Source of the DNA: a virus
Taxonomy: Duplodnaviria > Heunggongvirae > Uroviricota > Caudoviricetes
Virus record (IMG/VR): IMGVR_UViG_3300030021_000027
Direction: 5' to 3' (one strand)
DNA length: 13,114 nucleotides
The notes below the pieces were generated by a model. The model saw only the letters and a list, made by a program, of their open reading frames with translations, was not told where the DNA came from and did no database searches. Each line of letters opens with the position of its first letter. The stretch's first letter is position 1. The position numbers were made by a program, and so were the translations under genes. Positions 1 to 13,114 of this stretch are shown here, piece by piece.

Positions 1-318
1 TACTGGCGAGAAACACGCCTTTTTCAGATAACTTGATCATTAAATGCTCCAGATATCTGCGCACCGTGAAGTGCGCAAAAAGATAATAAATGGATATACT
101 CTAAATAATTCGAGTTGCAGGAAGGCGACAAGCGAGTGAATCCCCAGGAGCTTACATAAGTAAGTGACTGGGGTGAGCGAACGCAGACGCAGCACATGCA
201 ACTCAAATTATTTAGAGTATATCCATTTATTATCTTTCTGCGCACTTCACGGTGCGCAGATATCTGGAGCATTTGATGATCAAGTTATCTGAAAAAGGCG
301 TGTTTCTCGCCAGTAATA
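1..318. repeat. ERIC/IRU-like element embedded in a long imperfect palindrome (arms about 1-115 and 201-318)
   Basis: Core at 136-179 contains both classic ERIC primer target sequences (GTGAATCCCCAGGAGCTTACAT and AAGTAAGTGACTGGGGTGAGCG). Positions 1-43 are the exact reverse complement of 276-318, and 61-110 is the reverse complement of 206-255 with one mismatch. Confidence 0.8.
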
Positions 319-2537
319 ACGAAATAATTGCTGAAGAACATTTCACCGGCGAAATTAAAAAAGAAGAAGCCAAAAAAGGCACTATTGCCTGGTCTATTCT
401 CTCTTCGCATAATACGTCCGGAAATATGGATAAACTTAAAATTAAGTTTGATTCATTAGCCTCTCACGATATTACCTTTGTTGGTATTGTACAGACCGCT
501 AAAGCGTCCGGTATGGAACGTTTCCCGCTGCCGTATGTGCTGACCAACTGCCATAACTCACTCTGCGCCGTCGGCGGCACCATTAACGGTGATGACCATG
601 TTTTTGGTTTATCGGCAGCTCAGCGTTATGGCGGTATTTTTGTGCCTCCGCATATTGCGGTCATCCATCAATATATGCGTGAGATGATGGCAGGCGGCGG
701 CAAAATGATCCTCGGGTCAGACAGCCACACCCGTTACGGTGCATTAGGGACAATGGCAGTCGGTGAGGGCGGTGGTGAGTTGGTAAAACAGCTGCTTAAT
801 GACACTTGGGATATCGACTATCCGGGAGTTGTTGCGGTGCATCTGACCGGAAAACCAGCGCCGTATGTGGGGCCGCAGGATGTGGCGCTGGCTATCATTG
901 GCGCGGTGTTCAAAAACGGTTACGTCAAAAACAAAGTCATGGAGTTCGTTGGACCGGGCGTTAGCGCGCTCTCTACCGATTTCCGTAACAGCGTTGACGT
1001 GATGACCACGGAAACCACCTGTTTAAGCTCCGTCTGGCAAACTGATGAAGAAGTGCATAACTGGCTGGCGCTGCACGGTCGCGGCCAGGATTACTGCCAG
1101 CTTAACCCTCAACCGATGGCGTACTACGATGGCTGCATCAGCGTTGATTTAAGCGCCATCAAACCAATGATTGCGCTGCCGTTCCACCCGAGCAACGTGT
1201 ATGAAATCGACACACTGAACCAGAACCTGACCGACATTCTGCGTGAGATTGAAATTGAGTCCGAACGCGTGGCGCACGGTAAAGCCAAACTCTCGCTGCT
1301 GGATAAAGTGGAAAATGGTCGCCTGAAAGTGCAGCAGGGGATTATCGCGGGCTGTTCTGGCGGTAACTACGAAAACGTCATCGCGGCGGCGAATGCACTG
1401 CGCGGTCAATCCTGTGGCAATGACACCTTCTCGCTGGCAGTTTACCCGTCATCACAGCCGGTGTTTATGGATCTCGCCAAAAAAGGTGTGGTAGCAGATT
1501 TGATTGGCGCAGGCGCAATCATCAGAACCGCGTTCTGCGGCCCATGCTTTGGCGCGGGCGATACGCCAATCAACAACGGATTAAGTATTCGCCACACCAC
1601 GCGTAACTTCCCGAACCGCGAAGGCTCTAAGCCAGCTAATGGGCAGATGTCAGCGGTGGCGTTGATGGACGCTCGTTCTATCGCTGCGACTGCGGCAAAC
1701 GGTGGCTATTTAACCTCTGCCAGCGAACTTGATTGCTGGGACAACGTGCCGGAGTACGCCTTCGATGTAACGCCGTATAAAAACCGTGTTTATCAGGGCT
1801 TTGTGAAAGGGGCAACTCAGCAACCGCTGATTTACGGACCGAACATTAAAGACTGGCCGGAATTGGGTGCGCTGACTGACAATATCGTCCTGAAAGTGTG
1901 CTCGAAGATCCTCGACGAAGTGACCACCACCGACGAACTGATTCCTTCCGGTGAAACCTCTTCTTATCGTTCAAATCCGATTGGTCTGGCGGAGTTTACC
2001 CTGTCACGCCGCGATCCCGGTTATGTTGGCAGAAGTAAAGCGACTGCTGAGCTGGAAAATCAGCGTCTGGCGGGGAATGTCAGCGAGCTGACAGAGGTGT
2101 TTGCGCGCATTAAGCAGATTGCTGGTCAGGAGCATATTGATCCGCTGCAAACTGAAATTGGCAGCATGGTATATGCGGTGAAACCAGGCGATGGTTCTGC
2201 GCGTGAACAGGCGGCGAGCTGCCAGCGTGTGATTGGCGGTCTGGCGAATATTGCCGAAGAGTACGCGACTAAACGCTACCGTTCTAACGTCATCAACTGG
2301 GGGATGTTACCGCTGCAGATGGCGGAAGTGCCAACCTTTGAAGTGGGGGATTACATTTACATCCCTGGCATTAAAGCGGCGCTGGATAATCCGGGTACGA
2401 CGTTTAAAGGTTATGTGATCCATGAAGATGCGCCGGTAACGGAAATTACGCTCTATATGGAAAGTCTGACTGCTGAAGAGCGCGAGATTATCAAGGCGGG
2501 TAGTTTGATTAACTTCAATAAAAACCGTCAGATGTAA
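276..2537 (+). CDS. ybhJ: Aconitase-family protein YbhJ (753 aa from ATG at 276; the track ORF begins at an upstream GTG at 252)
   Basis: Long ORF whose translation ([18 protein letters not shown]...) I recognise as E. coli YbhJ. GGAG lies 7 nt upstream of the ATG at 276. Host-like GC content and synteny with ybhC and the att site. Confidence 0.88.
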
Positions 2538-2552
2538 AAAGCGCCATGTGAA

Positions 2553-2663
<111 letters not shown>

Positions 2664-2678
2664 AATAGTTAATAGCTC

Positions 2679-3962
2679 TTACTTCTTCGCCTCTGCAACC
2701 ACTTTACTACCCACGCCGCGGTTATTGTATTCCCACATGCGGTTGTAGTTAGTGTCATTCAGATTGCGCTGTATTTCGTCGTTATCATCTACGCTGCCGG
2801 TATTACCCGCAAACGGACGATTAGAGATCACCGCATCGGCCCACGGTTTAGCCGTGTTAAAACCTTCGTTGATGGCGCTATCACGGATCACCACCTGACC
2901 GTTGGTATTGGCATCAACATCCAGCGAGCGGCCCAGTTGCGCCACACCATCACCGAAAGCATTGAAACGGCTGTTTACGGCGAGGAAACCGTAGTAAATG
3001 TTGGACAGCGTAGCCGGTGCAAACACATACGCTTCTTGCTGAGTACGTGAGTTCACCACGCGGAATTCGGTGTTATCGAACACCACTGCGCCGCGACCAG
3101 AAACGATATCCACATCCCCTTCAATGTAGCTGTTGGTCACCAGCGTACGCGGCTGACGGTTGGTTTCCAGACGGTTCTGCACACCGCTGTTGGTGACAAA
3201 GAAGGTGTTCTGACGACCGAGAATGTTAACGTTGTTAATCTGTACCTGGTCACCATCAGTACGCAGTGCCACCGCCGGATGGTTACCTGCATCTACGCTA
3301 TCGCCCAGCGTGTTTTCGATGGTCAGATTTTGCAGTTGCAGGCCATTGTTTTGTGACCAGAAGACCGCAGAGCAGAGAACACCGATACTGTCGCTGCGTT
3401 TGCTCTGGCAGCTATCGTACATATACCACGCTGGTTTACCTGGCATATATTTGCCGCGCGGGTTGACGTCGTGACGCCAGTCGGCAGGGCTCATGCCCCC
3501 ATCAAGGGAAAGCCCAATCTTCACATCAATCGGTTTTTCACCTGTACCGTACAGAGTAATTCCACCCGGAGCAGCAGGGACATACACCGTTCCCTGATAC
3601 TCACCAGGCATCACGGCAATATACTGGCGCTTGTTAGTGCGCTTGATAATTGCCGCATCTACCGCCGCCTGAATCGTGGTATGCGTTACACCTTGAGTAC
3701 CCGCCGGGCCGACAACAAAGTCAGGTTGCGCAGGCAGGGTAATCGGGGAAGGATTCCACGCTGCAGCACCTGGTGTCAGGGATGCAAAATAGTGTTGAGC
3801 ATCGAAATTCTGCGCTTCTTTTGCCGACAGAATCGGGCGAGAAGAGGTACCAGGCGCGGTTTGATCAGAAGGACGTTGATCGGGTGGTGTTGAGCTACAG
3901 GCGGTCAGCGTCACGCCAAAAGCCAATGCCAGCGCCAGACGGGAAACTGAAAATGTGTTCAC
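2679..3962 (-). CDS. ybhC: Outer-membrane lipoprotein YbhC (pectinesterase-like / acyl-CoA thioesterase family), 427 aa
   Basis: ORF translation begins MNTFSVSRLALALAFGVTLTACSS with a lipobox (LTAC). Recognised as YbhC, the gene that flanks attB-lambda in E. coli. Confidence 0.9.
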   Translation of the reverse strand: MNTFSVSRLALALAFGVTLTACSSTPPDQRPSDQTAPGTSSRPILSAKEAQNFDAQHYFASLTPGAAAWNPSPITLPAQPDFVVGPAGTQGVTHTTIQAAVDAAIIKRTNKRQYIAVMPGEYQGTVYVPAAPGGITLYGTGEKPIDVKIGLSLDGGMSPADWRHDVNPRGKYMPGKPAWYMYDSCQSKRSDSIGVLCSAVFWSQNNGLQLQNLTIENTLGDSVDAGNHPAVALRTDGDQVQINNVNILGRQNTFFVTNSGVQNRLETNRQPRTLVTNSYIEGDVDIVSGRGAVVFDNTEFRVVNSRTQQEAYVFAPATLSNIYYGFLAVNSRFNAFGDGVAQLGRSLDVDANTNGQVVIRDSAINEGFNTAKPWADAVISNRPFAGNTGSVDDNDEIQRNLNDTNYNRMWEYNNRGVGSKVVAEAKK

Positions 3963-3994
3963 AGGTTGCTCCGGGCTATGAAATAGAAAAATGA

Positions 3995-4100
3995 ATCCGT
4001 TGAAGCCTGCTTTTTTATACTAAGTTGGCATTATAAAAAAGCATTGCTTATCAATTTGTTGCAACGAACAGGTCACTATCAGTCAAAATAAAATCATTAT
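3995..4100. other. attL: Phage lambda attL (B-O-P'): bacterial B arm, 15-bp core at 4009-4023, P' arm with Int arm-type sites
   Basis: Core GCTTTTTTATACTAA at 4009-4023 is preceded by attB-type sequence (CCGTTGAAGCCTGC) and followed by lambda P' arm sequence (GTTGGCATTATAAAAAAGCATTGCTTATCAATTTGTTGCAACGAACAGGTCACTATCAGTCAAAATAAAATCATT) running into the int 3' end. Confidence 0.9.
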
Positions 4101-5167
4101 TTGATTTCAATTTTGTCCCACTCCCTGCCTCTGTCATCACGATACTGTGATGCCATGGTGTCCGACTTATGCCCGAGAAGATGTTGAGCAAACTTATCGC
4201 TTATCTGCTTCTCATAGAGTCTTGCAGACAAACTGCGCAACTCGTGAAAGGTAGGCGGATCCCCTTCGAAGGAAAGACCTGATGCTTTTCGTGCGCGCAT
4301 AAAATACCTTGATACTGTGCCGGATGAAAGCGGTTCGCGACGAGTAGATGCAATTATGGTTTCTCCGCCAAGAATCTCTTTGCATTTATCAAGTGTTTCC
4401 TTCATTGATATTCCGAGAGCATCAACATGCAATACTGTTGGGATGGCAATTTTTACGCCTGTTTTGCTTTGCTCGACATAAAGATATCCATCTACGATAT
4501 CAGACCACTTCATTTCGCATAAATCACCAACTCGTTGCCCGGTAACAACAGCCAGTTCCATTGCAAGTCTGAGCCAACATGGTAATGATTCTGCTGCTTG
4601 ATAAATTTTCAGGTATTCGTCAGCCGTAAGTCTTGATCTCCTTACCTCTGATTTTGCTGCGCGAGTGGCAGCGACAGGGTTTGTTGTTATATGGCCTTCA
4701 GCTATTGCCTCTCGGAATGCATCGCTCAGTGTTGATCTGATTAACTTGGCTGACGCCGCCTTGCCCTCGTCTATGTATCCATTGAGCATTGCCGCAATTT
4801 CTTTTGTGGTGATGTCTTCAAGTGGAGCATCAGGCAGACCCCTCCTTATTGCTTTAATTTTGCTCATGTAATTTATGAGTGTCTTCTGCTTGATTCCTCT
4901 GCTGGCCAGGATTTTTTCGTAGCGATCAAGCCATGAATGTAACGTAACGGAATTATCACTGTTGATTCTCGCTGTCAGAGGCTTGTGTTTGTGTCCTGAA
5001 AATAACTCAATGTTGGCCTGTATAGCTTCAGTGATTGCGATTCGCCTGTCTCTGCCTAATCCAAACTCTTTACCCGTCCTTGGGTCCCTGTAGCAGTAAT
5101 ATCCATTGTTTCTTATATAAAGGTTAGGGGGTAAATCCCGGCGCTCATGACTTCGCCTTCTTCCCAT
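4097..5167 (-). CDS. int: Lambda-type tyrosine integrase Int, 356 aa
   Basis: Translation MGRRRSHERRDLPPNLYIRNNGYYCYRDPRTGKEFGLGRDRR... matches phage lambda Int over its full length by my recall. It is adjacent to attL and transcribed toward it, as in a lambda prophage. Confidence 0.97.
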   Translation of the reverse strand: MGRRRSHERRDLPPNLYIRNNGYYCYRDPRTGKEFGLGRDRRIAITEAIQANIELFSGHKHKPLTARINSDNSVTLHSWLDRYEKILASRGIKQKTLINYMSKIKAIRRGLPDAPLEDITTKEIAAMLNGYIDEGKAASAKLIRSTLSDAFREAIAEGHITTNPVAATRAAKSEVRRSRLTADEYLKIYQAAESLPCWLRLAMELAVVTGQRVGDLCEMKWSDIVDGYLYVEQSKTGVKIAIPTVLHVDALGISMKETLDKCKEILGGETIIASTRREPLSSGTVSRYFMRARKASGLSFEGDPPTFHELRSLSARLYEKQISDKFAQHLLGHKSDTMASQYRDDRGREWDKIEIK

Positions 5168-5363
5168 TTCTGATCCTCTTCAAAAGGCTACCTGTTACTG
5201 GTCGATTTAAGTCAACCTTTACCGCTGATTCGTGGAACAGATACTCTCTTCCATCCTTAACCGGAGGAGGGAATATCCTGCACTCGCGTACCCATCGACG
5301 AACTGTTTCAAGGCTTCTTGGGCGTCGCTGGCGTGCGTTCCACTCCTGAAGTGTCAAGTACAT
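5145..5363 (-). CDS. xis: Lambda-type excisionase Xis, 72 aa
   Basis: Translation MYLTLQEWNARQRRPRSLETVRRWVRECRIFPPPVKDGREYLFHESAVKVDL... It overlaps the int start by 23 nt, as in lambda. Confidence 0.95.
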   Translation of the reverse strand: MYLTLQEWNARQRRPRSLETVRRWVRECRIFPPPVKDGREYLFHESAVKVDLNRPVTGSLLKRIRNGKKAKS

Positions 5364-5389
5364 CGCAAAGTCTCCGCAATTACACGCAA

Positions 5390-5412
5390 GAAAAAACCGC
5401 CATCAGGCGGCT
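5390..5412 (-). terminator. Candidate rho-independent terminator (minus strand) at the 3' end of the orf55-like gene
   Basis: Minus-strand GC stem (GCCGCC/GGCGGT, 4-nt loop) followed by a run of six T (plus-strand A-tract 5391-5396). Confidence 0.4.
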
Positions 5413-5570
5413 TGGTGTTCTTTCAGTTCTTCAATTCGAATATTGGTTACGTCTGCATGTGCTATCTGCGCCCATATCATCCAGTGGTTATAACAGTCGT
5501 TGATGTTCTCTGCTTCGATAACCCTGTTGAATGGCTCTCCATTCCATTCACCTGTGACTCGGAAGTGCAT
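5403..5570 (-). CDS. Small lambdoid early-left ORF (55 aa, lambda orf55-like); not in the supplied ORF track
   Basis: My own translation of the minus strand gives MHFRVTGEWNGEPFNRVIEAENINDCYNHWMIWAQIAHADVTNIRIEELKEHQAA. GGAG lies 7 nt upstream of the ATG at 5570. Position immediately upstream of xis matches lambda organisation. Confidence 0.55.
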   Translation of the reverse strand: MHFRVTGEWNGEPFNRVIEAENINDCYNHWMIWAQIAHADVTNIRIEELKEHQAA

Positions 5571-5583
5571 TTATCATCTCCAT

Positions 5584-5607
5584 AAAACAAAACTCGCCGT
5601 AGCGAGT
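5584..5607 (-). terminator. Candidate rho-independent terminator (minus strand) downstream of the 142-aa gene
   Basis: Inverted repeat ACTCGC-CGTA-GCGAGT followed on the minus strand by TTTGTTTT. Confidence 0.45.
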
Positions 5608-5653
5608 TCAGATATAATTTCCACCAAAGGCAGTAGTTGCTTGATGCTAAGAA

Positions 5654-6082
5654 TTATTCAATATCTATTCCTGTAATATCTTTTATCTTTTTCCTTGCAA
5701 AGCCTTTTGCTAGTGATTTTGAAACACTCATAAGTGTACTAATTCCCTCATCCTTAAAGTTTGTTTTTATAGCTTGCCAGACATCCTTTTGACGTAAGTC
5801 AGCAATAAAATCATGCCCTCTTGCTGTCAACCTCAGTGGTACTTCGATCCAACTATATCCAACACCTTCCCCTAACGCTTTGGACAATATATGACCGAAC
5901 CCAGGTTTTCCATCAACCCTGACTATTAATTCGTAGTCACATAATAATCGCATATGGAAAATAAAATCTTGGTCATATCTATTAAAGCCATTATCCTCTA
6001 GTTCACTAAGCATCGTGTCAGGGCCACGAGTTTTTTCGAATGCGATAAGTAGATCTTTTAGATATTGCTGGTCTAATTTCAT
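5654..6082 (-). CDS. Hypothetical protein, 142 aa (phage accessory gene, function unknown)
   Basis: ORF with strong RBS (GGAGG, 5-nt spacer) before the ATG at 6082. AT-rich relative to flanks. No family recognised by eye. Confidence 0.7.
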   Translation of the reverse strand: MKLDQQYLKDLLIAFEKTRGPDTMLSELEDNGFNRYDQDFIFHMRLLCDYELIVRVDGKPGFGHILSKALGEGVGYSWIEVPLRLTARGHDFIADLRQKDVWQAIKTNFKDEGISTLMSVSKSLAKGFARKKIKDITGIDIE

Positions 6083-6110
6083 TGCCGCCTCCGTGACATG
6101 TCACAGAGAT

Positions 6111-6449
6111 TTATATCATTAATTTTGTTTCGTGCCAGCCTTTGGTCACCCAGCATTGTGAGTCACCATTACACGGGCATGAATTAACAGGAACTCTCTC
6201 GCCGCACTTACCGCACCGTTTTCTGCTGATCGATTTTATACGCCAGCGCACACGTGCATCATCCTGGCGGCTCAGTAACGCGATGTACTCACCAAACTCG
6301 CAAGGCGCACGCCTGAAGCGACGCGTGGCACAGTTACGCTCCAGCATTTCAATTTCCTGAGCATCAAGTACAAGCTCCAGCTTACGCATACCGGATGATG
6401 CTTGCTTGGCTCTCTGATCGGCTTTGTGCTCTGTTGCTGATTTAGCCAT
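6111..6449 (-). CDS. Hypothetical protein, 112 aa, with a C-terminal Cys-rich (zinc-ribbon-like) region
   Basis: ORF with AGGAAA RBS about 7 nt upstream of the ATG at 6449. C-terminus reads RKRCGKCGERVPVNSCPCNGDSQCW. Ends 28 bp upstream of the 142-aa gene, suggesting an operon. Confidence 0.65.
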   Translation of the reverse strand: MAKSATEHKADQRAKQASSGMRKLELVLDAQEIEMLERNCATRRFRRAPCEFGEYIALLSRQDDARVRWRIKSISRKRCGKCGERVPVNSCPCNGDSQCWVTKGWHETKLMI

Positions 6450-6645
6450 TCTGCTTTTCCTGCATCAGGAGAAAGACAATCATGGCGGCGCGGATACTTC
6501 CGGTATCTTTTTACGCGATATTCCCCTTCAATGGCACATACAAGAAGAGAGCCATCAACAGGAGTGATTGAGGAATCGACAACCAGCAACGCTTAATTAT
6601 CTATAGTGTCGTATTTGCTTCATAAAATATGGCGAATAACACAAA

Positions 6646-6677
6646 GCCCGCAGCAGCTCATTGTGCGGGCTTTTCTT
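6646..6677. terminator. Candidate bidirectional rho-independent terminator separating the two-gene cassette from the secreted-protein gene
   Basis: 7-bp GC-rich stem (GCCCGCA/TGCGGGC) followed by TTTTCTT on the plus strand and a weaker T-rich tail on the minus strand. Confidence 0.5.
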
Positions 6678-6742
6678 ATACCTACTTCCTAGAGATAATT
6701 CTATGGAGGCATTAAATCAATACTGTCATTGGTAATATCATA

Positions 6743-7357
6743 TTATCTAAAAGTCTTTCCACTTTTAACATCTAGGTATATTCTGTTCGACAACGTCATT
6801 CCTCCGCAATATGTGAAATAGATGTTTTCACCCTTATTGCTTGATGCCATCCACCCTCCGATTTCCTTAAAATCGCTTTCCGTGCAGACCCCTTCATTTA
6901 TTAACTTCCTAGCTGCCGAAGAAAACTCTTTTTTGTATATACGGTAGTCATCAGATCCTTTGATTAAAGTATCATCTCCGCTCGCATTTTCAGCAGGATC
7001 TGATGGCCTTTCACTGCTAAGATCACTAAGTTTAACCCATTCTGAAAACTTGCCATTAACGATTCCATTTTTTCTTGTGCAGGATTTATTACCTTCTTTA
7101 ATATATTCGCTTTCCCCTCCAACACATGAGGCTGAATATGGCTCAGTTATACGAACCCATTCACCTTTTTTTTCTAGAAAATCTACGCCTTCCCTGAAAA
7201 ATAGTTTCCCAGCCACTCCACATTTACTTGAAGGGCAGGTATGTCTTTCCGTTTGATCAACAACAACCCATAGTTTTGATTCATTTTTTGCCATTGCCGA
7301 TGGTATTTGAGATGAGACAATTAACGTAAGCCCTAAAATTAGTATTGATTTTTTCAT
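6743..7357 (-). CDS. Secreted Cys-rich hypothetical protein, 204 aa (signal peptide, probable SPase I site after AMA)
   Basis: N-terminus MKKSILILGLTLIVSSQIPSAMA-KNES is a typical Sec signal peptide with no lipobox. Six Cys in the mature part. AAGGAA RBS before the ATG. Very AT-rich gene with a terminator downstream. Confidence 0.75.
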   Translation of the reverse strand: MKKSILILGLTLIVSSQIPSAMAKNESKLWVVVDQTERHTCPSSKCGVAGKLFFREGVDFLEKKGEWVRITEPYSASCVGGESEYIKEGNKSCTRKNGIVNGKFSEWVKLSDLSSERPSDPAENASGDDTLIKGSDDYRIYKKEFSSAARKLINEGVCTESDFKEIGGWMASSNKGENIYFTYCGGMTLSNRIYLDVKSGKTFR

Positions 7358-7496
7358 TGTAATTTCCTTTTACTTTTTACAAAGCGTTTAATCATGGCTG
7401 ATTATCTCTAAGTGTAGTAACAGCCTTGTGCGAAACATGTTACCAAATCGCCATTTCAGTGTATCCGCAGTTAGGCTGCCACTTCAAGGATTCCTA

Positions 7497-7907
7497 ATTA
7501 CATGGTACGTAAGCGTAAAATCCCGTTGGTTGGCGGGTAATAACTCTGATCAAATCTCCCTTGTCTTTTGCTCTTACGTATGCAGCTCTTGTGTATTCAA
7601 CCCAGGCCTCCAGTTCAGCAATACGCTTACTTCCATCCGAGATAACACCTTCTACTCACGCTGCTCGTTGAGTTTTGATTTTTGCTGTCTCCAGCTCAAC
7701 ACGCAGTTTCCCCACCGTTAGCGCAATATCCTCGTTCTCCTGGTCGCGGCGTTTGATGTATTGCTGGTTTCTTTCCCGTTCATCCAGCAGTGTCAGCACA
7801 ATCGATGGTGTTACCAGCTCATGGAAAAGGTCCGCGTCAAATCCCCAGTTGTCAGGCATTGCCTGCTCTGCCGCTTCACGCAGTGCCTGAGAGTGAATTA
7901 CGCTCAC
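7497..7907 (-). pseudogene. Early-left hypothetical gene interrupted by an in-frame TGA (83 codons, TGA at 7656-7658, then 53 in-frame codons)
   Basis: The 83-aa ORF (7656-7907) ends at TGA. The same frame continues for 53 codons (VEGVISDGSKRIAELEAWVEYTRAAYVRAKDKGDLIRVITRQPTGFYAYVPCN) with no ATG/GTG/TTG start codon of its own, ending at TAG 7494-7496. Confidence 0.5.
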
Positions 7908-8125
7908 TTCGAACCTCTCTGTTTACTGATAAGCTCCAGATCTTCCTGGCAACTTGCACAAGTCCGACAACCCTGAACGGCCAGGCGTCTTAGCTCATCT
8001 ATGGGATCGCCACACTCACAACAATGAGTGGCAGATACAGCCTGGTGGTTCAGGCGGCGCATTTTTATTGCTGTGTTGCGCTGTAATTCTTCAATTTCTG
8101 ATGCTGAATCAATGATGTCTGCCAT
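7904..8125 (-). CDS. TraR/DksA-family C4 zinc-finger protein, 73 aa (lambda Orf73-like)
   Basis: Translation has the CxxC-x17-CxxC motif (CCECGDPIDELRRLAVQGCRTCASC) and the size typical of TraR-like phage proteins. Its stop overlaps the next gene's start (ATGA). Confidence 0.85.
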   Translation of the reverse strand: MADIIDSASEIEELQRNTAIKMRRLNHQAVSATHCCECGDPIDELRRLAVQGCRTCASCQEDLELISKQRGSK

Positions 8126-8178
8126 CTTCCATTAATCCCTGAATTGTTGGTTAATACGCTTGGGGGTAAATGCGAGCA

Positions 8179-8201
8179 ATAAAAAAGGAGCCTGTAGCTC
8201 C
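8179..8201 (-). terminator. Weak candidate terminator (minus strand) between the orf61-like and TraR-like genes
   Basis: Short GGAGC/GCTCC stem followed by a run of six T on the minus strand. Confidence 0.3.
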
Positions 8202-8223
8202 CTGATAATTTTGCTTTTCATGT

Positions 8224-8439
8224 TCATCGTTCCTTAAAGACGCCGTTTAACATGCCGATTGCCAGGCTTAAATGAGTCGGTGTGAATCCCATCAGCGTTA
8301 CCGTTTCGCGGTGCTTCTTCAGTACGCTACGGCAAATGTCATCGACGTTTTTATCCGGAAACTGCTGTCTGGCTTTTTTGATTTCAGAATTAGCCTGACG
8401 GGCAATGCTGCGAAGGGCGTTTTCTTGCTGAGGTGTCAT
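8224..8439 (-). CDS. Lambdoid early-left small ORF (orf61-like), 71 aa from ATG 8439; the track ORF extends to 8505
   Basis: Protein-like translation MTPQQENALRSIARQANSEIKKARQQFPDKNVDDICRSVLKKHRETVTLMGFTPTHLSLAIGMLNGVFKER, directly downstream of orf63 as in lambda. The N-terminal extension from 8505 looks non-coding. Start choice is uncertain. Confidence 0.6.
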   Translation of the reverse strand: MTPQQENALRSIARQANSEIKKARQQFPDKNVDDICRSVLKKHRETVTLMGFTPTHLSLAIGMLNGVFKER

Positions 8440-8515
8440 TGAACAAGCCCCATGTCGGCAAGCATAAGCACACAGAATATGAAGCCCGCTGCCAGAAAAA
8501 TGCATTCAGTGGTTG

Positions 8516-8707
8516 TCATACCTGGTCTCTCTCATCTGCTTCTGCTTTCGCCACCATCATTTCCAGCTTTTGTGAAAGGGATGCGGCTAACGTATGAAAT
8601 TCTTCGTCTGTTTCTACTGGTATTGGCACAAACCTGACTCCAATTTGAGCGAGGCTATGTGCCATCTCGATACACGTTCTTAACTCAACAGGAGATGCTT
8701 TGTGCAT
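8516..8707 (-). CDS. Lambda orf63-like protein, 63 aa
   Basis: Translation MHKASPVELRTCIEMAHSLAQIGVRFVPIPVETDEEFHTLAASLSQKLEMMVAKAEADERDQV, recognised as the lambda early-left orf63 product. G-rich RBS upstream. Confidence 0.85.
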   Translation of the reverse strand: MHKASPVELRTCIEMAHSLAQIGVRFVPIPVETDEEFHTLAASLSQKLEMMVAKAEADERDQV

Positions 8708-8817
8708 ACAGCCCCCCGTTTATTATTTATCTCCTCAGCCAGCCGCTGTGCTTTCAGGGGATTTCTGATAACAGAAAGGCCGGGAAATATCTGGCTGAAA
8801 GAGGGGGTTATTAAGGC

Positions 8818-9180
8818 GTGAATACCTACAGCATCACATTACCCTGGCCTCCGAGCAATAATCGCTATTACCGCCATAATCGCGGGCGCACGCACGTCAG
8901 CGCAGAGGGGCAGGCATACCGCGATAACGTCGCCCGAATCATTAAAAACGCAATGCTGGATATCGGCCTGACTATGCCTGTGAAAATCCGCATTGAGTGC
9001 CACATGCCGGATCGCCGTCGCCGTGACCTGGATAATCTGCAAAAAGCCGCTTTTGACGCACTCACTAAAGCAGGTTTCTGGCTGGATGATGCTCAGGTCG
9101 TTGATTACCGCGTTGTGAAGATGCCTGTTACCAAAGGTGGGAGGCTGGAACTGACCATCACCGAAATGGGGAATGAATGA
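8818..9180 (+). CDS. rusA: Holliday-junction resolvase RusA (crossover junction endodeoxyribonuclease), 120 aa, GTG start
   Basis: Translation [47 protein letters not shown]... is near-identical to E. coli DLP12 RusA by my recall. GAGGGGG RBS upstream. Confidence 0.95.
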
Positions 9181-9317
9181 TGTTTGAGTTTAATATGGCA
9201 GAACTTCTTCGCCACCGCTGGGGGCGTCTGCGCTTATATCGTTTCCCCGGTTCTGTTTTGACCGATTACCGAATACTGAAGAATTACGCCAAAACACTGA
9301 CAGGAGCAGGAGTATGA
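9180..9317 (+). CDS. ylcG: Small nin-region protein YlcG-like, 45 aa; not in the supplied ORF track
   Basis: My own translation gives [45 protein letters not shown]. Its start overlaps the rusA stop (TGATG arrangement), conserved with DLP12 rusA-ylcG. Confidence 0.75.
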   Translation: MFEFNMAELLRHRWGRLRLYRFPGSVLTDYRILKNYAKTLTGAGV

Positions 9318-9402
9318 AGTCAGAGATAACAATCAACTAATACTGTTTTGTTGATTTTTGCTTGTAATTGGCGTTCTGGTCTGAGTTTTGTGGAGTAAGT
9401 TG

Positions 9403-9780
9403 ATGCGTGATATTCAGATGGTTCTTGAGCGTTGGGGAGCGTGGGCGGCTAATAATCATGAAGATGTGACCTGGTCGTCCATTGCCGCCGGTTTTAAGGG
9501 ATTAATTCCTTCAAAAGTAAAATCTCGCCCACAATGTTGTGACGATGACGCGATGATCATTTGCGGGTGCATGGCCCGTCTGAAAAAGAACAACAGCGAT
9601 TTGCATGATTTATTGGTGGACTATTATGTCGGCGGCATGACTTTTATGGCGCTTGCACGTAAGCATGGGCGATCTGATTGTTGGGTTGGCAGGATGCTTC
9701 AGAAAGCTGAGGGCGTAGTGGAGGGTATGCTGATGGTGTTGGATCTCCGATTGGAGATGGATGCTGATTGTTCGAAATAA
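9403..9780 (+). CDS. quuD: Q-type late-gene antiterminator (QuuD / phage 21 Q-like), 125 aa from ATG 9403; the track ORF starts at TTG 9388
   Basis: Translation [67 protein letters not shown]..., recognised as DLP12 QuuD-like. GGAG lies 8 nt upstream of the ATG. Confidence 0.85.
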
Positions 9781-9789
9781 TTAAAGGAA

Positions 9790-9875
9790 AAGTTGCTGTC
9801 TGATTGTCATTAGTCTAACATTTTAAATGTTGGAATCGCAACGTAGTTATTATCATATAACAGCTTGTTTCCTGA
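9790..9875 (+). promoter_or_regulatory. Candidate late promoter pR' with Q-utilisation region (exact -35/-10 not resolved)
   Basis: Immediately downstream of the Q gene. Sigma70-like hexamers present (TTGCTG, 17 nt, TAACAT; alternatively TTGGAA ... TATCAT). 15-bp inverted repeat AACATTTTAAATGTT. Followed by a strong terminator, as for lambdoid pR'-tR'. Confidence 0.4.
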
Positions 9876-9880
9876 TTTAG

Positions 9881-9907
9881 CCAGCCTCCCCAAAGGCTGG
9901 TTTTTTT
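9881..9907 (+). terminator. Strong rho-independent terminator (tR'-like) downstream of the Q gene
   Basis: CCAGCCT-CCCCAA-AGGCTGG perfect 7-bp stem followed by a run of seven T. Confidence 0.8.
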
Positions 9908-9935
9908 CTAATAAGTATTATTTCGGGTAGGGATT

Positions 9936-10460
9936 TTATTGTTTAACCCATAATAATTCATTGACATTGAATCCCAACTTTTGAGCGGTTCGCACATAGT
10001 CTGCTTTTACTTTATCTGGAATAGTTGGGGTCCTTGCCAGAATCCATAGGTATTCTCTGTTCGGACCACTGACAAGAGCATACTTATACTCATCATCCAG
10101 TTTGATTACATTATAGCCACCATAGAAGGGGCCAAAAAACGAAACCTTCAATGCTGCAGTTTTAGTATCTCCAGTAAAGTATGCTTTACCTTCGCTCTCG
10201 CTCCATTTATTTTTCGTTGGATCGTATCCACGGTTAAGTACACGAATCCCTCCGTCGTTCCGTTTTCCATAAGTAGCGCTGACCTGTTCCAGACCACGTT
10301 CGAACCGGTTCTCGAGGCGAGCTATTTCATACCATTTTCCGAGGTAGCGGTTGGCGTCAAAATTTGTAATCGGCTGCACACCTTTAGGTGGTGTCGGGGC
10401 CTTACATGCTATAAGAGTGAAAGAGAGTGCAATGCCAGTCAACACAGGCCATAACTTCAT
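9936..10460 (-). CDS. Bacterial lipocalin Blc-like outer-membrane lipoprotein, 174 aa
   Basis: Lipoprotein signal MKLWPVLTGIALSFTLIAC (lipobox LIAC). Mature region (FDANRYLGKWYEIARLENRFERGLEQVSATY...KAYFTG...ALKVSFFGPFYGGYNVI...EYLWILARTP) is clearly homologous to E. coli Blc but divergent. Confidence 0.85.
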   Translation of the reverse strand: MKLWPVLTGIALSFTLIACKAPTPPKGVQPITNFDANRYLGKWYEIARLENRFERGLEQVSATYGKRNDGGIRVLNRGYDPTKNKWSESEGKAYFTGDTKTAALKVSFFGPFYGGYNVIKLDDEYKYALVSGPNREYLWILARTPTIPDKVKADYVRTAQKLGFNVNELLWVKQ

Positions 10461-10652
10461 AATAAATCCTGTACTTTTGATAGTTGAGAGTAAGTATGAA
10501 AGATAGATGATTACGACCGATCACTTAAAGAACTTTCATACTATATTAGGAATAGTCCATAACAGAAAAATTGTCAGTGATGACGCCAGAAAGGCAATTT
10601 ATTCCGTGCACTACACAGTTTATGTGTTAATGAATTAGTCAAGGGGGAGAAT

Positions 10653-11612
10653 ATGATAAAAAAACCTGTGATTGGAATCAGCGGTTGTTTGGCCGGTTCT
10701 GCTGTTCGTTTTGATGGTGGTCACAAAAGAGCTGACTTTTTAATGGACAAATTAGTGGAATGGGTAACATTCAGACCAGTATGTCCGGAAATGGCTATAG
10801 GGCTGCCAGTTCCGCGTCCTGCTCTACGTCTTGTGCGCTCGACGCAAGGAAATATACGGATGTGTTTCAGCCACGACCAGAATGAGGATGTGACAGAGAG
10901 AATGACAGAGTTTAGTCGTTCTTATATGGACAAATTAAAGGATGTATCGGGGTTTGTGGTTTGTGCTAAATCTCCCAGCTGTGGCATGGAGCGCGTGCGT
11001 GTCTATGATGAAAATGGTAATCGAGGTCGTAAAGATGGAGTGGGACTATTTACGAGCACTTTGATGGAAAAGTTTTCCTGGCTACCGGTTGAAGAGGATG
11101 GGCGATTACATGATCCAGTGCTTCGTGAGAATTTTGTTGAAAGAGTTTTTGCTTTGCATGAGCTCAATCACCTTTACAAGGAGAAATTATCAAGAAGAGA
11201 GTTATTAGCTTTTCATAGTCGTTATAAGCTTCAGTTGTTGGCGCATAGTCAGGCAGGCTATAAAGATATGGGACCATTTGTGGCTGCAATACACGAGTGG
11301 GCGGACCTTGAATCATACTTTGAGGTGTATCGTGATAAGCTGATGGCGATTCTCAGAAAACCTGCATCACGTAAAAATCACACGAATGTGCTGATGCATA
11401 TACAGGGGTATTTTAGTAACTACTTAAGTACACGCCAGCGTAAAGAGTTGAGCGAGGTTATACTTAACTATCGTTCTGGCACATTACCTCTTCTTGCGCC
11501 GTTGACTCTGCTGAAGCATTATCTGGGTGAGTATCCTAATGATTACTTGCTTACACAGAATTACTTCGATCCCTATCCGGACGAACTGGCTCTAAGACTG
11601 ATGGTAAATTAA
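10653..11612 (+). CDS. DUF523 (TudS-like thiouracil desulfidase fold) / DUF1722 (YbgA-like) fusion protein, 319 aa
   Basis: N-terminus MIKKPVIGISGCLAGSAVRFDGGHKR with conserved Cys residues typical of DUF523. The C-terminal half resembles YbgA-type DUF1722. Strong RBS AAGGGGGAG. Family assignment is from memory, not a search. Confidence 0.8.
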   Translation: MIKKPVIGISGCLAGSAVRFDGGHKRADFLMDKLVEWVTFRPVCPEMAIGLPVPRPALRLVRSTQGNIRMCFSHDQNEDVTERMTEFSRSYMDKLKDVSGFVVCAKSPSCGMERVRVYDENGNRGRKDGVGLFTSTLMEKFSWLPVEEDGRLHDPVLRENFVERVFALHELNHLYKEKLSRRELLAFHSRYKLQLLAHSQAGYKDMGPFVAAIHEWADLESYFEVYRDKLMAILRKPASRKNHTNVLMHIQGYFSNYLSTRQRKELSEVILNYRSGTLPLLAPLTLLKHYLGEYPNDYLLTQNYFDPYPDELALRLMVN

Positions 11613-11963
11613 TTGTATGCGATATCATCCAAAAGGATGAGTTCCTGCATGCAGGATATTTACAATCGTAAAAACTACACTATGATACCCAGAGTGTCAG
11701 TTTGTATAAAAACTCTGTTTACGCTGAAGAAACAATTGAGATGCAACTTAAAGTTGGTAAACATGCCAGTCAAAATATATAATATTATGATTCCACGCAG
11801 CTATATATAATATAACGGATTGGTTTAATAATTTGTCTTTGTGAGTTAAATACATAATTTTATACTTGTGATGCAATGAAATTTTCCTTATTGTTGAACT
11901 GGCGAATATTGATTTTCCACCTATACTTACCTGGTGTAACCCCAATGATATCAGGTGGATAAT

Positions 11964-12695
11964 ATGCCATACATATGTTCTATCATTTTGGTGTTGAACT
12001 CGTTTGATGTCCGAATTGGTAAAGAAGATATTTTGTTTAAAAAAGGAAGTGCTGTTCTCATTGATTACAATTTAAAAGATTTTTTTTCATCAAATATAGA
12101 TCATGTAATGATCGTAGATGTTGAAGAGAAAACAGTTAATGATTTCTTTAAAAGCAACACACTCTCACCTTTTTCTGTAAGAAGGTTTTATCCGGCATAC
12201 TTGATGGTGGAATGTGAAGATTTTTCATTGTTAAAGAACTTGATTGCATGCTTGAATTGTGATGGCAGAACTGTGGATTTTGTTAGAAATCAAATATCAC
12301 TTGCATGTCTTGCTATCTTATCTTCAGAGAAAATAGTGCAAAGTTTTTTATTTGGATGTCTTAATAGTTTAGGAAGTAAAGTTAAGGCTATTATTCACAC
12401 GGATATATCTGCAGCATGGAGACTTTGTGATATATCTTCAAGACTGTATCTGAGTGAAAGTCTGTTAAAAAGAAAATTAAAGCACGAAGGCTTATCATTT
12501 AGTAAGTTAATTCTTGAAGAGCGAATGGTGATGGCGGAAAGGTTATTAAGCTACAATTTATATTCTGTTGGAAAAGTTGCTGAGATATGCGGTTATGAAA
12601 ACACGTCATATTTTGTAAGTGTTTTCAGAAGGTATTTTGGTGTTCCTCCCCATCAATATTCATCAAGATTTTTTTTAGAAAAAGACATGATGTAA
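11964..12695 (+). CDS. AraC-family transcriptional regulator, AppY/EnvY-like, about 243 aa (the track ORF starts at GTG 11955)
   Basis: N-terminus MPYICSIILVLNSFDV resembles AppY (MDYVCSVVFICQSFDL). C-terminal AraC-type helix-turn-helix (ICGYENTSYFVSVFRRYFGVPPHQY). AGGTGG RBS upstream. Preceded by a 340-bp extremely AT-rich region. Confidence 0.85.
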   Translation: MPYICSIILVLNSFDVRIGKEDILFKKGSAVLIDYNLKDFFSSNIDHVMIVDVEEKTVNDFFKSNTLSPFSVRRFYPAYLMVECEDFSLLKNLIACLNCDGRTVDFVRNQISLACLAILSSEKIVQSFLFGCLNSLGSKVKAIIHTDISAAWRLCDISSRLYLSESLLKRKLKHEGLSFSKLILEERMVMAERLLSYNLYSVGKVAEICGYENTSYFVSVFRRYFGVPPHQYSSRFFLEKDMM

Positions 12696-12882
12696 CGTGA
12701 TGCGTTTTAATGATTTTGTAATTTTCGTATTTGATAATTGTATGATGCTTTCAGCTACGCCAGAATAATCGCGGCGTTTTTCTTTTTGAATAGATGTTCA
12801 AGCCTTACGCTAATGTAACTTCTATACCTTTCCTCTTCGTTCCGAACCGTGTACACCATCCGTTATTTGCGGAGGTGAGGCT

Positions 12883-13098
12883 ATGAAATCCATGGATAAG
12901 TTAACAACGGGCATTGCCTACGGCACCTCCGCAGGCAGTGCTGGCTACTGGTTTTTACAGTTGCTCGATAAAGTCACGCCCTCACAGTGGGCAGCAATAG
13001 GTGTGCTGGGTAGCTTGGTATTTGGCCTGCTGACGTACCTGACAAACCTTTATTTCAAGATTAAAGAAGATAAGCGCAAGGCTGCGAGAGGTGAATAA
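12883..13098 (+). CDS. essD: Phage-21-type class II holin (pinholin S21 / EssD-like) with dual-start motif, 71 aa
   Basis: Translation [71 protein letters not shown]. Met1 and Met4 are separated by Lys-Ser (antiholin/holin dual start). GGAGG RBS. Confidence 0.9.
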
Positions 13099-13114
13099 TG
13101 CCTCCATCATTACG
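13098..13114 (+). CDS. rrrD: 5' end of endolysin gene (SAR-endolysin R21 / RrrD-like), truncated by the window edge
   Basis: ATG overlaps the holin stop (TAATG). The first codons MPPSL match the N-terminus of phage 21 / DLP12 lysozyme. Only 17 nt are visible. Confidence 0.5.

Follow-up and report, generated by a model that had tools for sequence, protein, structure and literature searches.

What does a protein that joins a desulfurase-type catalytic domain to a YbgA-type domain do in a lambdoid prophage, and why is its gene found between the antiterminator gene Q and the lysis genes? The protein is encoded in the window, by which we mean the whole stretch of 13,114 nucleotides that was analysed. 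To judge from its sequence, the gene is very probably rudS, coding for a [4Fe-4S]-dependent tRNA 4-thiouridine desulfidase that travels as cargo of lambdoid phages. Directly established are the domain architecture, the presence of the functional residues, the near-identity to a protein that has been tested, purifying selection and the constant place of the gene between Q and the lysis genes. Both the enzyme family and a phage copy of 93% identity were already published in 2024. The window gene is a known thing found again, and its identification as such therefore adds little.

Architecture and residues of the fusion protein

The rudS coding sequence (10653-11612, + strand) was recognised by ORF scan, Pfam, RefSeq and its match to the phage protein RudS_vir. 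It is an uninterrupted reading frame of 319 codons from ATG to TAA, and the SD-like purine-rich sequence AAGGGGGAG precedes the ATG with a gap of 3 nt. The TudS/DUF523 catalytic domain (residues 7-149; 10671-11099, + strand) matches the Pfam family PF04463, '2-thiouracil desulfurase', over profile positions 1-141 of 141 (E 3e-40, 137.9 bits, cut-off 34.7). The helical DUF1722 domain (residues 192-309; 11226-11579, + strand) matches PF08349 over positions 1-117 of 117 (E 2e-40, 138.2 bits, cut-off 22.5); it contains S239-R240 and has been proposed to bind the anticodon arm of tRNA (PMC11417400). An earlier note, made from the sequence, had described the ORF as a DUF523-DUF1722 fusion, and with two full-length Pfam domains in one uninterrupted frame this description holds. 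The domain search that the note had suggested assigned these two families and no unrelated one.

In RefSeq the identical coding sequence is named 'YbgA family protein' (WP_000592546.1). The YbgA equivalog model of NCBIfam (PRK10167) matches residues 160-315 only and reaches 190.8 bits where its cut-off is 237. YbgA of E. coli K-12 (b0707) shares the DUF1722 domain and is 49% identical to residues 164-315, but it lacks a catalytic domain and does not alter tRNA s4U (PMC11417400). With a score below the cut-off and the identity confined to the C-terminal half, the product is not a YbgA equivalog. The earlier note was also correct in crediting K-12 with a stand-alone DUF1722 protein only: YbgA of MG1655 has 169 aa and aligns to residues 164-315 alone. 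Its gene is located upstream of phr in MG1655.

Another relative is the stand-alone DUF523 protein TudS (PDB 6Z92). Its catalytic domain is homologous to that of the window protein, and the two align at the CPE motif and at the first two cysteines of the cluster; unlike the window protein TudS lacks DUF1722, and it acts on free 4-thiouracil and 4-thio-UMP (PMC11417400). The TudS-related NCBIfam model gave 18.3 bits against a cut-off of 130. This low score and the length of the 319-aa fusion rule out a stand-alone TudS, a single-domain protein of about 150-166 aa. In sequence searches of the PDB, with the single sequence or a profile, TudS 6Z92 was the sole match and aligned over residues 5-66 only. 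An AlphaFold2 model built from 18 close homologues (at least 70% identity) had too low a confidence to judge the fold by (mean pLDDT 58, pTM 0.43).

A fusion of TudS and DUF1722 defines RudS, the desulfidase of 4-thiouridine at tRNA position 8 (s4U8; Jamontas et al., Nucleic Acids Res 2024, PMC11417400). RudS proteins strip the sulfur of s4U from tRNA in vivo and in vitro, the latter demonstrated with RudS_KT; catalysis takes place in the TudS domain, which carries the [4Fe-4S] cluster, and DUF1722 binds the anticodon region of the tRNA (PMC11417400). Six proteins were tested in that study, among them RudS_vir, which is gp66 of Escherichia phage 1H12. Every tested RudS, RudS_vir included, lowered tRNA s4U in E. 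coli in vivo, by 4.7- to 26-fold across the variants, and overexpression of RudS_KT shortened the growth delay that UVA induces in E. coli (PMC11417400). The window protein is identical to RudS_vir (YP_009909557.1) at 298 of 319 positions (93%), without a gap. The two proteins share the length of 319 aa and the cysteines Cys12, Cys44 and Cys110, and the two genes lie in the same cassette of Q, lipocalin (- strand), RudS, an AraC-like protein of 243-246 aa and holin. They differ by 21 substitutions, the gene DNA being about 92% identical, and in their carriers: 1H12 is a complete lambda-type phage, the carrier of the window gene a decayed prophage. Thus the suggestion of the earlier note that tRNA s4U might be the substrate is borne out for the published family and for this close relative. 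Its description of the tRNA link as untested has been overtaken by the 2024 study, which includes the UVA growth-delay phenotype for RudS_KT (PMC11417400).

The three putative ligands of the [4Fe-4S] cluster, assigned by sequence, are encoded on the + strand at 10686-10688 (Cys12), 10782-10784 (Cys44) and 10980-10982 (Cys110). Their numbering is that of RudS_vir and RudS_ST (Table 1, PMC11417400). The earlier note had asked for a check of the cluster-binding cysteines; in the sequence all three are present, and they are invariant among the orthologues. The alignment with TudS 6Z92 covers C12, C44 and the CPE motif; it stops at residue 66, and the assignment of C110 therefore comes from the full-length Pfam match and the published table.

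RudS_KT (Pseudomonas putida PP_0741) is likewise a TudS-DUF1722 fusion with three cysteines, the catalytic set E/R/S/S and the S-R contact to tRNA. By numbering offset, from which (and not from an alignment) all correspondences to RudS_KT were derived, E46, R55, S107 and S109 of the window protein, within the CPE and SPSC motifs, match the catalytic residues E51, R60, S111 and S113, and R19, S239 and R240 match the tRNA-contact residues R24, S243 and R244. Two positions differ: the window protein has F20 in place of Y25, and D21 in place of the tRNA-binding residue N26. A Y25F mutant of RudS_KT kept wild-type activity (PMC11417400). The cysteines, the catalytic residues and the tRNA-contact residues listed here are invariant across 17-18 chromosomal orthologues of 70-77% identity; about 150 columns of the orthologue alignment are invariant, every catalytic residue included.

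The steps of the mechanism were taken from the characterised RudS family and mapped onto the window sequence. Cys12, Cys44 and Cys110 would hold the [4Fe-4S] cluster, whose free fourth iron would bind the sulfur of s4U at tRNA position 8. Glu46, Ser107, Ser109 and Arg55 would then catalyse a hydrolytic, non-redox replacement of sulfur by oxygen, yielding uridine and sulfide. The C-terminal DUF1722 domain (S239, R240) would bind the anticodon arm, and as it grips this arm the substrate would be intact tRNA rather than free thiouracil. A tRNA that has lost the UVA-sensitive s4U8 would not form the s4U8-C13 crosslink; no uncharged tRNA would build up and the near-UV growth delay would be avoided. 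Both the activity of the window allele and its cluster binding are predicted from these residues.

It is also conceivable that the enzyme of the phage clade serves mainly in TudS-like salvage or detoxification of free 4-thiouracil, 4-thiouridine or 4-thio-UMP and that the de-modification of tRNA is a side activity seen on overexpression. The catalytic domain of the window protein is a bona fide PF04463 domain, and RudS_vir had the shortest lag on 4-thiouracil of all RudS variants in a uracil auxotroph, together with a lower tRNA activity than other RudS proteins despite good expression, i.e. below what its protein level would lead one to expect (PMC11417400). Taken together, the latter two results make it possible that the phage clade is somewhat more TudS-like. 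However, no RudS rescued the auxotroph as TudS did and none supported growth on 2-thiouracil, and stand-alone TudS left tRNA s4U unchanged whereas every fusion changed it (PMC11417400). Moreover, DUF1722 with its invariant S239 and R240 is under purifying selection, although a small-molecule enzyme would have no need of it. We therefore regard a mainly TudS-like role as improbable. Free thiouracils, of which the earlier note had proposed 2-thiouracil for an assay, are not the main substrates of RudS.

The cassette and its prophage

The window is 100% identical to the chromosome of E. coli EC20-4B-2 from position 197 to 13114. It contains, in this order, ybhJ, ybhC, the att core, int, xis, a few early-left genes, rusA, ylcG, Q, the lipocalin gene, rudS, the gene of the AraC-type regulator and the gene of the S21-type holin. 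The lambda att core GCTTTTTTATACTAA (4009-4023, + strand; an exact match, with 0 expected by chance) marks the left prophage end between ybhC and int. Some 19 kb further along the matching genome, ahead of ybhB, the element comes to its end. Missing from it are N, cI, cro, cII, O, P and the majority of the head and tail genes, and its downstream terminase gene is inverted as well as truncated. The position of the att core and these gene losses show a decayed lambdoid prophage at lambda attB. The prophage location assumed in the earlier note is thereby substantiated, the att core being followed by int, xis, rusA, Q, the cassette and holin.

At the deletion junction (window 8707-8818; L003 26484-26622) rusA (+ strand) directly adjoins a truncated gene for DUF1317 (- strand), so that the remnant has none of exo/bet/gam, N, cI, cro, cII, O, P, ren and the nin genes. 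A fuller form in related strains has cII, O, P, ren, the nin genes and a complete morphogenesis block. The remnant of about 19 kb retains the block from Q to the lysis genes.

Within this block rudS lies in an exchangeable cargo cassette of about 3.1 kb (9763-12871), delimited by blastn against phage ev243, a lambda hybrid which has a porin gene at the same site. Homology to ev243 ends at 9762, 18 nt before the stop codon of Q (9403-9780, + strand; PF06530), and sets in again at 12872, 11 nt upstream of the start codon of the S21-type holin gene essD (12883-13098, + strand; PF04971), the first lysis gene and right boundary of the cassette. The first cassette gene encodes a Blc-like lipocalin (9936-10460, - strand; PF08212 with E 7e-44, phrog_2809) and is antisense to the late operon; the N-terminus of the lipocalin resembles a lipoprotein signal, ending in ...LIAC. 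Downstream of rudS lies a gene for a regulator of the AraC/XylS family (11964-12695, + strand; PF12833, PF00165) with a G+C content of 30-33%. Located between Q/tR' and the lysis genes, with conserved flanks and alternative cargo in relatives, rudS is late-region cargo of lambdoid phages, a 'moron'. The same slot of the late operon is occupied by the Shiga toxin genes in Stx phages.

The neighbourhood of rudS differs from that of RudS_KT, the gene of which is chromosomal and part of a light-inducible phrB/LitR operon, whereas the window gene lies in a phage late region beside a regulator of AraC type, not MerR type. RudS genes are frequently found in light-responsive operons (PMC11417400). A light-sensing MerR/LitR neighbour as in Pseudomonas, Salmonella and Enterobacter was nevertheless rejected for the window, the adjacent regulator belonging to the AraC family and sharing 48% identity, along 159 aa, with PsrA (ECs_1087) of the EHEC O157 prophage Sp4. 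PsrA is an EHEC prophage regulator of gadE and GAD acid resistance and of type III secretion, and its gene also lies just downstream of a Q gene. The AraC-like protein could belong to the Psr/PatE group, as a member from non-EHEC strains that has yet to be characterised, and its gene may well be independent cargo rather than that of a regulator of RudS. A reading of the cassette as an anti-phage defence system was dismissed, as PADLOC gave no match for RudS, the AraC-like protein, the lipocalin or a 204-aa ORF located among the early-left genes.

This 204-aa ORF (6743-7357, - strand) is a full-length match to phrog_8310, a family of unknown function, and has no match in Pfam. Its neighbours are a phrog_536 'transcriptional regulator' (6111-6449) and a TraR/DksA zinc-finger gene (7904-8125). 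tRNA genes and known RNA families were not found in the window. The right-hand end of the prophage remnant, on the inner side of ybhB, carries a GGDEF-domain gene (L003 38720-40051). A database protein of 403 aa (P0002) is annotated as a RudS-GGDEF fusion; it is probably the product of a deletion or of an assembly joining these two cargo genes. At the left end of the window, the sequence from 197 to 315, which covers the beginning of ybhJ and the stretch preceding it, recurs in reverse complement at 1-119 with 97% identity, and the 77 nt between the copies resemble a palindromic repeat of the ERIC/IRU type. The arrangement at 1-315 is absent from complete E. coli genomes, where ybhI follows instead, and suggests an artefact of fold-back where a contig ends.

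Distribution, selection and origin of rudS

The earlier note had called a full fusion carried by a prophage unusual. This view is not tenable. Searched for alone, rudS matches 1136 of 5426 complete E. coli genomes (21%), and the alleles fall into three classes, with 624 genomes at or above 99% identity, 402 in the range of 95-99% and 110 in that of 90-95%. The 3-kb block from the lipocalin gene to the AraC-like gene is covered to at least 80% in 992 genomes. In IMG/VR 146 contigs encode a RudS relative. Among the best 80 of these 146 loci the lipocalin is present in all 80, and the order Q (+), lipocalin (-), RudS (+), AraC-like protein (+) and holin (+) in 71; the remaining 9 have no full-length match to the AraC-like protein or to holin. 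PHROGs holds a family for RudS, phrog_3275, labelled 'unknown function'. The cassette also occurs in the isolated phage IdasGreatGrand (complete genome, 98.6% DNA identity) and in the lambda-type hybrid family that includes 1H12, and its gene order is preserved in intact prophages as well as in an isolated phage. Going by these counts across genomes, IMG/VR and phages, rudS is common. Hence the statement that E. coli lacks RudS (PMC11417400) is true only of K-12 and laboratory strains.

Could the gene be inert baggage, hitch-hiking or decaying in a dead prophage and without current function? The window prophage, a remnant of about 19 kb that has lost its immunity genes, its replication genes and most structural genes, would fit this, and in some genomes rudS copies are interrupted or truncated by IS elements. 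Yet between the window allele and the 1H12 allele dN is 0.031 and dS 0.290, i.e. a dN/dS of 0.106, which indicates purifying selection within the phage clade. All catalytic residues are intact in the window allele, the ORF is covered to at least 80% in 1064 of the 1136 carrier genomes, and rudS is retained in complete, isolated phages. The absence of any current function is thus highly improbable. In one Qin-like remnant an IS1 element lies about 50 bp upstream of the rudS ATG and the ORF is intact.

The nearest relatives outside E. coli are chromosomal proteins, likewise of 319 aa and 70-77% identical, from Citrobacter, Serratia, Enterobacter, Klebsiella and others; RudS_ST (ORF319) of Salmonella has the same likeness to the window protein. 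The phage rudS looks like a capture from such a chromosome. In Citrobacter braakii, RudS is encoded by the last gene of an operon with genes for a SnoaL-like protein, an SDR, an amine oxidase, DUF1365, a cyclopropane-fatty-acid (CFA) synthase, DUF2878 and DUF3833. This gene set resembles that of photo-oxidative stress operons. Unlike the window locus, the Citrobacter locus has no phage genes and no lipocalin or AraC neighbour. The idea that the lipocalin and RudS were captured together from a chromosomal stress operon was discarded, because neither the 175-aa nor the DUF3833 neighbour of Citrobacter RudS is similar to the prophage lipocalin.

A Salmonella copy of RudS, 74% identical, was found in two loci (L007 6001-6960; L008 3704-4663). 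It is flanked by ttcA, a gene of the tRNA 2-thiocytidine synthase type (PF01171), and by DUF1367, Usp and porin genes. These neighbours suggest a prophage remnant inserted at ttcA, and not SPI-2. In that case the phage-mediated spread of RudS would extend beyond E. coli.

Transcription and possible role in phage and lysogen

A terminator-like hairpin, the candidate tR', lies just downstream of Q (9879-9910, + strand; hairpin at 9879-9902, followed by a T-run). From Q to holin the + strand has no second hairpin of this intrinsic-terminator-like kind with a T-run; the part after rudS and before the holin gene, too, is free of such sites. As rudS and the AraC-like gene are co-oriented with the late operon and no further terminator follows, Q-modified RNA polymerase would transcribe both genes in an intact phage. 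The late transcript would then read the lipocalin gene antisense. Late-promoter control of rudS, as proposed in the earlier note, would follow from this position. In the window prophage N, cI, cro, O and P are lost, and with them the normal route to Q expression through pR and N. Any expression of rudS from this prophage would thus have to come from its own promoter, from read-through or through the neighbouring regulator.

Accordingly rudS could be read in the Q-dependent late transcript of an intact phage, from its own promoter in lysogens, or in both ways. A possible interpretation is that it is a gene of lysogenic conversion rather than a late lytic gene, with its own promoter, possibly under the AraC-like regulator, and with a contribution to the tolerance of the host to UVA or other stress. 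The cassette survives in heavily decayed prophages that are unable to run the lytic programme, a regulator of the Psr/PatE kind is always adjacent to rudS, and the chromosomal orthologues are genes of stress operons. Furthermore, the divergent region between the lipocalin gene and rudS (10461-10652; 192 bp) is AT-rich, largely conserved with 1H12, and contains a weak sigma-70-like match (TTGAGA-16-GATGAT, 10484-10511). On the other hand, promoter-like sites are no more frequent than in shuffled sequence (13 found vs 10.5 +/- 3.4 expected), and since rudS points in the direction of the late operon and terminator-like sites are absent between tR' and S, Q-modified polymerase would read through into it. 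Lysogenic conversion hence deserves consideration as a minority view.

More tentatively still, phage RudS might be an adaptive tool, by which s4U8 is erased either through the Q-dependent late transcript when the prophage is induced in sunlight or by UV, or as a host trait expressed in the lysogen; for the time being we consider this doubtful. Were the late version true, the burst would not be cut by UVA-induced tRNA crosslinks, rising ppGpp and arrested translation. Were the lysogen version true, about one fifth of E. coli strains would have a heritable difference in s4U level and near-UV growth delay, two properties currently treated as species-wide traits of E. coli. Since 21% of the complete E. 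coli genomes carry rudS, near-UV growth delay, s4U content and related stringent responses may differ between strains. On what RudS or DUF1722 might do in E. coli prophages, our literature search returned nothing beyond PMC11417400. With a slot in the late operon that holds a porin gene in ev243, and with its AraC neighbour, the locus is a tractable case for asking why a phage erases a modification of host tRNA.

Apart from one short block, there is almost no homology downstream of Q between the window and the porin-carrying relatives, and pR' was not placed with confidence. The block, TATATAACAG (window 9859-9870), is shared with ev243 (L014), where it likewise lies downstream of a near-identical Q gene. 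It may mark a late promoter or Q-utilisation region kept by both types of cassette.
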